From the IMG/VR virus record IMGVR_UViG_3300000358_000075: a stretch of 26,005 nucleotides of DNA. One strand, written 5' to 3'. This DNA comes from a virus (taxonomy: Duplodnaviria > Heunggongvirae > Uroviricota > Caudoviricetes). The position numbers and the translations under genes were made by a program. The notes beneath the pieces are model-generated. The model was not told the DNA's origin. It did not search any database and saw nothing but the letters and a program-made list of their open reading frames with translations. Positions 13,486-13,505 of this stretch are shown in pieces (position 1 is the stretch's first letter; the number at the start of each line of letters is the position of its first letter).

Positions 13486-13505
13486 TACTGTATTTATGAA
13501 CAGTG
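13486..13505. promoter_or_regulatory. LexA (SOS) box upstream of the KilA-N gene
   Basis: TACTGTATTTATGAACAGTG matches the CTGT-N8-ACAG SOS-box consensus, about 100 bp upstream of the ATG at 13603 in a 160-bp intergenic region. Confidence 0.6.

Follow-up and report, generated by a model that had tools for sequence, protein, structure and literature searches.

A LexA-type operator and an adjoining predicted promoter upstream of kilA-N in an SfIV-like Escherichia coli prophage

Introduction

What might a near-consensus LexA operator do when it lies between two genes of a prophage's rightward operon, outside the immunity region? The question is raised by 20 bp at positions 13486–13505 of the IMG/VR virus record IMGVR_UViG_3300000358_000075, a stretch of 26,005 nucleotides (the window, by which the whole stretch is meant throughout) that holds a lambdoid Escherichia coli prophage of the SfIV / PhiR49_1 type, and in which these 20 bp precede a gene for a KilA-N domain protein (kilA-N). 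An SOS box preceding a prophage gene is, taken alone, a familiar kind of feature. A sequence-only reading of the window had gone further and proposed that the box places an antirepressor-like KilA-N gene under host LexA control, which would give a second induction route beside autocleavage of the S24 repressor. Our analysis shifts the emphasis from antirepression to transcription. We consider it probable, with real room for doubt, that the site is a host LexA operator gating an internal promoter for kilA-N, the DUF968 gene that follows it and possibly the antiterminator gene Q, and that the SOS response lifts LexA repression of this promoter alongside cleavage of the phage repressor.

The SOS box

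The window sequence at 13486–13505 reads TACTGTATTTATGAACAGTG and contains a CTGT-N8-ACAG core at 13488–13503, exactly where the sequence-only reading had placed it. Compared with the E. coli LexA consensus TACTGTATATATATACAGTA, 16 of 20 positions are equal and both CTGT/ACAG arms are perfect, while 7 of the 8 bases at the centre are A or T. Sites were graded by a heterology index (HI), the matrix for which was built from 26 E. coli and colicin operators, all HI values being approximate; the box scores 6.0, and the 26 reference operators span 1.7–12.1. An HI of 6.0 was reached by none of 5000 shuffles of the 162-nt spacer in which the box lies (minimum 7.7) and by none of 100 shuffles of the whole window (minimum 6.8). 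These data confirm that the box is a real, non-chance sequence feature, and by its sequence the site qualifies as an SOS box. Host LexA is the most economical candidate for its binder, the site being an E. coli operator of textbook form.

The window holds three CTGT-N8-ACAG matches against 0.33 expected. Only one site is comparable with the box under study, at 8201–8220 (HI 5.1, see below), and the next best scores 14.0; the third match, at 9431, was dropped as an operator (HI 16.3). Runs of N, which mark masked sequence, are found at 7224–7299, 11546–11628, 23667–23676 and 24356–24365, all of them distant from the box. In SfIV, an inducible phage of 39.8 kb that carries the same spacer and a KilA-N protein 99% identical to that of the window, this box is the single strong LexA box (HI 4.5), with the next best at 14.1.

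The predicted promoter and its putative transcript

The box stands between the rusA stop codon at 13440 and the kilA-N ATG at 13603. This is the sole sizeable gap from cro to Q, in agreement with the sequence-only reading, and all other junctions overlap or measure 13 bp or less. The spacer and the 5' border next to it contain the following features.

13415–13436, plus strand: hairpin CGAGTTGC-AAATTA-GCAACTCG in the 3' end of rusA, 5' of the box
13441–13602: gap of 162 bp, holding the LexA box and the predicted promoter
13464–13491, plus strand: weaker alternative promoter TTGGGT-16-TACTGT, its -10 being the left arm of the box (score 5.8, top 0.15%)
13511–13539, plus strand: predicted sigma-70 promoter P(kil), with -35 TTGATA at 13511–13516, a 17-nt spacer and -10 TAAGTT at 13534–13539; start near 13546
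13548–13582, plus strand: two-tier leader hairpin just 3' of the predicted start, core GGGA-GTGCAG-TCCC at 13559–13572

Promoters were scored with a sigma-70 weight matrix whose hexamer frequencies are likewise approximate. By this measure TTGATA-17-TAAGTT is the best sigma-70-like promoter of the region, with a score of 10.2 that places it in the top 5e-5 of window positions on both strands; the presumed PR scores 8.0. Only 5 nt separate the box from the -35 of this promoter; relative to the predicted start near 13546, the box spans approximately -60 to -41. It also overlaps the -10 of the weaker candidate, whose -35 becomes TTGAAT in the most diverged copy, one match nearer to TTGACA. Promoter-like TTGnnn-17-TAnnnT sequences are present at an equal distance from the ATG (61–66 nt) in Buttiauxella, Kluyvera, Cedecea, Leclercia and Erwinia relatives. 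Between box and ATG lie 97 nt, a spacing that supports a LexA-gated promoter because it falls inside the range listed for functional Salmonella SOS genes (uvrD 105, uvrA 80; PMC8072944).

The hairpin at the 3' end of rusA is no classical terminator, because the plus strand lacks a T-run there. As for the leader hairpin, its TGCAG loop is invariant in an alignment of 10 sequences and is also present in the majority, though not the whole, of the other relatives examined; the stems vary among genera, and 5 of 7 pairs show compensatory changes across the same 10 sequences. The hairpin is found upstream of KilA-N in many genera, at loci L003, L007, L008, L032, L084 and L093–L101, and it is kept by the SfII-type allele, there inside the 3' end of rusA. 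No Rfam family matched the spacer or its leader hairpin, which may stabilise the 5' end of the mRNA or be bound by a protein.

Promoter-like sequences also occur on the minus strand, namely TTATCA-19-TACAGT, which has its -10 inside the box (score 6.3), and TTGATG-17-GATTTT (score 7.7). The box might accordingly control a leftward promoter that yields RNA antisense to rusA and the genes upstream of it, but we regard this as extremely improbable: the candidate that overlaps the box has a poor 19-nt spacer, both candidates score below the rightward promoter, and no open reading frame (ORF) or known RNA lies on the minus strand there.

If LexA gates the rightward promoter, as we favour, then in a resting lysogen LexA bound at 13486–13505 would keep it low, either by adjoining the -35 of TTGATA-17-TAAGTT or by covering the -10 of the weaker TTGGGT-16-TACTGT. 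Upon DNA damage, RecA-stimulated cleavage of LexA would free the promoter, and the resulting mRNA would start with the conserved hairpin and encode KilA-N and the DUF968/HNH protein. No convincing plus-strand terminator was found from 13603 to 16181, so the spacer promoter could feed Q, its transcript running on into the late-gene antiterminator. The 'nin'–Q end of the prophage would in this way gain a direct SOS input that is independent of the cI repressor and parallel to cI self-cleavage. The sequence of the box, its statistics, its position and distribution among relatives and the domain content of the genes are observed, whereas it is inferred that LexA binds, that the promoter is active, that transcription reads through into Q and that induction is affected in any way. 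LexA control of kilA-N is likely, and Q behind it would probably be activated by DNA damage. The predicted promoter and the possible read-through into Q had been missed by the sequence-only reading, as had a second LexA box in the repressor gene.

The genes around the box are arranged as follows.

7737–8429, minus strand: repressor, with helix-turn-helix (HTH) and peptidase S24 domain matches
8527–8787, plus strand: cro, in the rightward operon
8780–9331, plus strand: ymfL, in the rightward operon
9328–10476, plus strand: Rha/Ash ORF of 382 residues, in the rightward operon
ending at 11512, plus strand: two small genes of the rightward operon
11515–12072, plus strand: PerC-like gene of the rightward operon
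ending at 12725, plus strand: Dam-type methylase gene of the rightward operon
12722–13048, plus strand: LexA-like protein of 108 residues (PF01726)
13045–13440, plus strand: RusA, in the rightward operon
13603–14418, plus strand: KilA-N gene, 271 residues (PF04383), with a Shine–Dalgarno sequence GGAG at 13593–13596
14420–15415, plus strand: DUF968 / HNH-like gene, with a GTG at 14420, 2 bases past the kilA-N stop; the RefSeq start maps to 14426
15429–16181, plus strand: ydfT-like antiterminator gene Q, the next gene in the same direction, with an amber codon at 15852–15854

DUF968 follows KilA-N in 34 of 80 related loci, including most of those with a full-length KilA-N match, and in 9 of the 9 loci that were inspected individually. 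The prophage matches that of strain MS20659, where it adjoins yjjG, and is a mosaic with Shigella phage SfIV, E. coli phage PhiR49_1, mEp460, SfII and several Shiga toxin (Stx) phages. The TAG at 15852–15854 is in frame and reads GAG in the otherwise near-identical prophage of MS20659; Q of the present copy is probably defective for late-gene activation, judging from this codon. Past Q, two cspA-type thermoregulator leaders (Rfam RF01766; 16956–17395 and 20226–20641) precede the prophage's cspB-like and cspI-like cold-shock genes, as in the Qin prophage region.

Distribution of the box among relatives

The box-bearing spacer together with the 5' part of kilA-N is present in 186–187 of 5426 complete E. 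coli genomes, O104:H4 outbreak strains included, and also in SfIV and PhiR49_1. Another 101 stretches in IMG/VR match the search pattern, and all but one of these are this spacer. Among 102 copies, which fall into 11 haplotypes (one of them an unrelated chance match), the sole substitution inside the box is G20 to A, towards the consensus. The distal 112 bp of the spacer were found nowhere else in E. coli genomes and so point to no donor promoter.

Outside E. coli and Shigella, the closest KilA-N relatives (72–80% identical) are in Citrobacter, Kluyvera, Cedecea, Pantoea, Leclercia and Kosakonia, where the gene order is methylase, LexA-domain gene (absent in Pantoea), rusA, a spacer of 85–105 bp, kilA-N, DUF968 and Q. 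Phylogenetic footprinting of the box by way of these relatives failed, as they have no good box. Exact CTG-N10-CAG sequences are almost absent upstream of KilA-N homologues at 80 loci of other species. When sites were graded instead, an HI of 13 or less was found upstream of KilA-N homologues at 8 of 32 loci of other Enterobacterales versus 13 of 1265 background windows (Fisher p 9e-9), and an HI of 16 or less at 13 of 32 versus 35 of 1265, the related KilA-N loci behind these statistics not being phylogenetically independent. The best of these boxes are GGCTGTTTTAATATCCAGTA in Edwardsiella (HI 8.0), GATTGTATATTTATACAGTC in Erwinia (HI 9.4, over a predicted -10) and AGTTGTACGTTTATACAGTG in Serratia (HI 10.5, containing a predicted -10); an overlap of a LexA-like box with a predicted -10 is seen in Erwinia, Serratia and Rahnella. 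LexA input to kilA-N therefore seems, from these sequences, to be recurrent and non-universal, with the window holding the best version found.

Degenerate versions of the box in Kluyvera and Kosakonia (GGGTGTATGCATGAACAGTG and TGGTGAATGGATGAACAGTA) span the rusA stop codon, and for that reason the E. coli box may have descended from, or been perfected out of, an older shared sequence. The same observation, which suggests common descent from coding sequence, is compatible with a more sceptical account, in which LexA may bind but the site is a relic of recombination, for example of an old rusA 3' end, with no regulatory role, kilA-N being expressed from PR only. The restriction of the box-bearing 110 bp to one E. 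coli/Shigella lineage with almost no variation would also fit such a relic, and the closest relatives manage without the box. We nevertheless find this account decidedly unlikely, given that the arms are perfect and the one polymorphism improves the match, that a strong promoter-like element adjoins the box, that spacers of unrelated sequence upstream of KilA-N contain LexA-like boxes far more often than background does, and that SfIV has no other strong box.

Strong LexA boxes were also seen elsewhere in related Kluyvera, Rosenbergiella, Providencia and Morganella prophage loci (L004:7156, L012:6951, L031:6460, L027:647), among them TACTGTAAAAATAAACAGTG (HI 5.8), approximately 3 kb 3' of kilA-N and past Q, and AGCTGTATATTTATACAGTT (HI 3.0).

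A phage-encoded LexA DNA-binding domain

The host protein is not the only candidate for the site. As the sequence-only reading had recognised, a gene resembling lexA lies two genes upstream of kilA-N, at 12722–13048. Its 108-residue product matches PF01726 over residues 1–65 and aligns one to one with residues 2–69 of E. coli LexA, 34 of 68 positions being identical. No match to an S24 domain was obtained for the protein, in which a 40-residue tail follows the LexA domain; the idea of a 'LexA mimic' in the sense of an S24 or UmuD-like protein was dropped, and the product is a DNA-binding domain. In alignment numbering it keeps S39, N41, A42 and E45 of LexA and the RG of the wing, with E44 replaced by V in the recognition helix. 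These residues have roles in base contacts in the LexA–DNA crystal structure.

This gene occurs in 61 phage records (including Stx2 phages, SfII, SfV, mEp460 and the cdtI phage), nearly always in the order methylase–lexA'–rusA. The gene and the box are inherited separately: the gene occurs in many phages that lack the box, and several loci show LexA-like boxes but no such gene. No studies of KilA-N, the spacer or the phage LexA-domain gene in these phages were found in the literature.

The 108-residue protein may itself bind the box at 13486–13505. The box could then be used, wholly or in part, by an uncleavable phage protein once host LexA has been lost and the early operon is on, with that protein serving either as an activator or as a timer that re-represses the promoter. 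Such a role is consistent with the retained alignment and contact residues, the lack of an S24 domain and the position of the gene in the same operon, two genes upstream; moreover, the box stands next to the core promoter without covering it, a position as fitting for an activator as for a repressor. There is also a precedent in gp6 of phage GIL01, a truncated, phage-encoded homologue of LexA: its site overlaps the -35 of a promoter that gp6 activates and host LexA represses (PMC6182141). The distribution of the two elements tells against it, since SfII, SfV, mEp460 and many Stx phages have the gene (96–99% identical) and no box before KilA-N, and LexA-like boxes are present at Serratia, Rahnella, Pantoea and Erwinia loci where the gene is missing over a range of 4 kb. 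In addition, the change of E44 to V means that specificity may differ, and a protein of 108 residues may not be able to dimerise and bind tightly. Overall we hold a role of this kind to be unlikely, although it is not exclusive with gating by host LexA.

The KilA-N protein and the antirepressor question

The identity of the gene downstream of the box was borne out, its 271-residue product matching Pfam PF04383 (E 1.3e-15) and PHROG 129 ('transcriptional regulator') only. The protein has an N-terminal KilA-N/APSES DNA-binding fold, and its AlphaFold2 model has a predicted local distance difference test score (pLDDT) of 77.5. The C-terminal part (residues 115–271, 157 residues) has no Pfam match at E values up to 10, and for the full-length protein and its model no significant PDB match was obtained beyond the N-terminal domain. 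No antirepressor family is among its matches in Pfam and PHROGs. We treat KilA-N as a DNA-binding protein and assign it no antirepressor activity.

The sequence-only reading had also reported an S24 repressor, and one is present at 7737–8429, with HTH and peptidase S24 domains (Peptidase_S24, E 5.9e-19). The protein has an Ala-Gly in SASAGNG together with GDSM and VKRL motifs that supply the Ser and Lys, and because of these features it looks self-cleaving and unlike the non-cleavable repressors that depend on antirepressors under LexA control. The repressor of SfIV shares 38% identity with it over 39 residues only; SfIV thus pairs a 99% identical KilA-N protein with an unrelated repressor, which speaks against an antirepressor dedicated to one repressor.

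A better antirepressor candidate in this prophage than KilA-N is the Rha/Ash ORF at 9328–10476, which matches anti-repressor PHROGs. Inside it lie two Rfam matches above the gathering score, IsrK at 9688–9764 (61 bits) and C4 antisense RNA at 9789–9876 (81 bits), and these suggest a P1 immI-like c4/ant module and an over-extended ORF call.

These findings bear on the proposal that KilA-N, under LexA control, acts as an antirepressor and inactivates the repressor of the prophage, in the manner of 186 Tum, N15 AntC and Gifsy GfoA/GfhA. In its favour are the name, which recalls the P1 KilA/Ant-type proteins, and the LexA box before a gene outside the immunity region, as in Gifsy prophages (PMC3121763). 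Set against these are the APSES fold, a DNA-binding domain as the only recognised family, the unrelated repressor of SfIV, the self-cleavage features of the repressor here, the separate ant-like Rha/Ash module with its C4/IsrK RNA matches, and the SfII-type KilA-N homologue, which is an ordinary operon gene without spacer or box. Of the features that characterise a LexA-controlled antirepressor module, the locus has a LexA box at the promoter (here predicted) of a gene outside the immunity region; its product belongs to no known antirepressor family, and its repressor is, by sequence, of the self-cleaving kind, so that the locus departs from the class in two defining features. The second induction route by antirepression consequently found no support, and we judge it very unlikely.

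A second LexA box inside the repressor gene

The comparable site at 8201–8220 lies within the minus-strand repressor gene and is a strong LexA box, CACTGTTTTTACATACAGTA, with an approximate HI of 5.1. On the sense strand of the repressor it reads TACTGTATGTAAAAACAGTG and encodes NTVCKNSV in the linker between HTH and S24. The box is kept in repressor homologues of 69–92% nucleotide identity from SfII, Salmonella ST64B, Klebsiella phages and the E. coli phages Flotzy and Eeyore, the SfII version being TACTGTATATAAAAACAGTA (also TACTGTTTTTATATACAGTA; HI 2.6). Across these genes TACTGT and (A/C)CAGT are fixed and the centre is variable, while flanking linker codons diverge freely, a pattern of conservation that at the sequence level mirrors LexA specificity. 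In addition, TTTACC or TTTACA stands exactly 17 nt 5' of TACTGT on the sense strand in 6 of the 6 sequences compared.

The site at 8201–8220 may be an SOS-inducible internal promoter that gives a C-terminal repressor fragment or a leftward transcript. Its likely binder is host LexA, because ST64B and the Klebsiella phages that have this repressor allele are absent from the listed phage records carrying the LexA-domain gene. Under peroxide and nitric oxide shock, ST64B shows high expression of a non-coding RNA and two genes 3' of the repressor (PMC7067206), which is compatible with a promoter inside the repressor gene and proves nothing. We found no description of the site in the literature.

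Discussion

Several lines of evidence lead us to favour a LexA-gated internal promoter upstream of kilA-N. These are the quality of the operator, its non-random occurrence and its standing in SfIV; the promoter-like sequence 5 nt 3' of it, whose counterparts in other genera are equally far from the ATG; the enrichment of LexA-like boxes upstream of KilA-N homologues; the direction of the only change seen within the box among its 102 copies; the order kilA-N, DUF968, Q with no convincing terminator; and the precedent of the Gifsy prophages, which have a LexA box and promoter 3' of the replication genes and outside the immunity region (PMC3121763).

A number of points nevertheless weigh against this conclusion. 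The best promoter model puts the box 5' of the -35 and outside the core promoter, from where repression would be weaker, and a stricter built-in promoter scan (at least 4 of 6 matches per hexamer) called neither of the spacer promoters; the LexA and sigma-70 matrices, moreover, are both approximate. The E. coli and IMG/VR copies are near-identical (178 of 186 E. coli genomes at 99% or more) and too alike for purifying selection to be measured. The SfII-type kilA-N allele (68% identical) begins 19 bp past rusA and has neither spacer nor box, and in the closest cross-genus relatives no good box was found upstream of kilA-N, the best spacer HI being 12.7 or worse. In the window itself the amber codon in Q blunts any effect of read-through on late genes. 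Finally, a literature search found no experimental data on this locus. Host LexA control of kilA-N, as the sequence-only reading proposed, is in sum a reasonable inference from the operator and the promoter-like sequence that adjoins it, and is likely rather than certain, because the closest cross-genus relatives lack the box.

If the promoter is LexA-gated, the Q-proximal end of the prophage would be switched on directly by DNA damage, without awaiting the cI/PR cascade, and the timing of late-gene expression and lysis could shift. The carriers make up approximately 3% of complete E. coli genomes, O104:H4 outbreak strains among them, and include the Shigella serotype-converting phage SfIV. 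Mutation of the box would offer a simple handle on the role of the widespread, uncharacterised KilA-N/DUF968 pair, and the phage LexA domain and the box in the repressor gene make this group of phages a tractable system in which to study how the SOS signal of the host is read, and perhaps rewritten, by phages. A broader idea, which we think unlikely as a whole, is that this lambdoid family (SfII/SfIV/SfV, mEp460 and several Stx phages) is wired to the SOS response through LexA operators beyond repressor cleavage, by way of a conserved box in the repressor gene, an SfIV-type LexA-gated promoter leading into Q, and a cleavage-proof phage LexA domain that, after the loss of host LexA, takes over these operators and possibly host SOS boxes.

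Compared with the classical E. coli SOS operators (those of recA, sulA, umuDC and the colicin promoters), the box at 13486–13505 belongs to the same class of 20-bp palindromes, with perfect CTGT/ACAG arms, an A/T-rich centre and an HI in the range of proven sites. Most of the classical operators, however, overlap the -35, the -10 or the start, whereas here the best predicted promoter begins 5 nt past the box. Among phage genes, coliphage 186 Tum, N15 AntC and SPC32H Ant (cited in PMC8044961) are LexA-repressed, demonstrated antirepressors that act on non-cleavable repressors. The locus described here resembles them in what would be a LexA-repressed phage gene outside the immunity switch; unlike them, its KilA-N product has no similarity to those antirepressors.

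The closest known system is formed by the dinI/antirepressor loci of the Gifsy prophages (Lemire, Figueroa-Bossi and Bossi 2011, PMC3121763). They too are lambdoid, with a LexA box and a promoter of its own (here predicted) 3' of the replication genes and a palindrome before it, and in both cases part of the prophage is, or here would be, plugged into the SOS response. The Gifsy boxes control genes for a small antirepressor and a homologue of DinI, in prophages whose repressors are non-cleavable; here, by contrast, a 271-residue KilA-N protein without antirepressor homology is followed by DUF968 and Q, and the repressor has a complete S24 domain.

For a phage protein consisting of a LexA DNA-binding domain only, gp6 of the Bacillus thuringiensis phage GIL01 (Fornelos et al. 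2018, PMC6182141) is the only comparable case that we found. The likeness lies in a phage-encoded LexA DNA-binding domain without a cleavage domain and in a phage promoter with LexA boxes, the promoter here being a predicted one. GIL01 is a tectivirus without a dedicated repressor and its gp6 is shorter, whereas the present phage is lambdoid and has a cI-type repressor beside its 108-residue protein; here, too, gene and box are not co-inherited, and binding of the box by the 108-residue protein is plausible by position. Should the wiring through all three elements prove true, it would amount to a two-LexA switch like that of GIL01 gp6 and LexA, but in coliphages.

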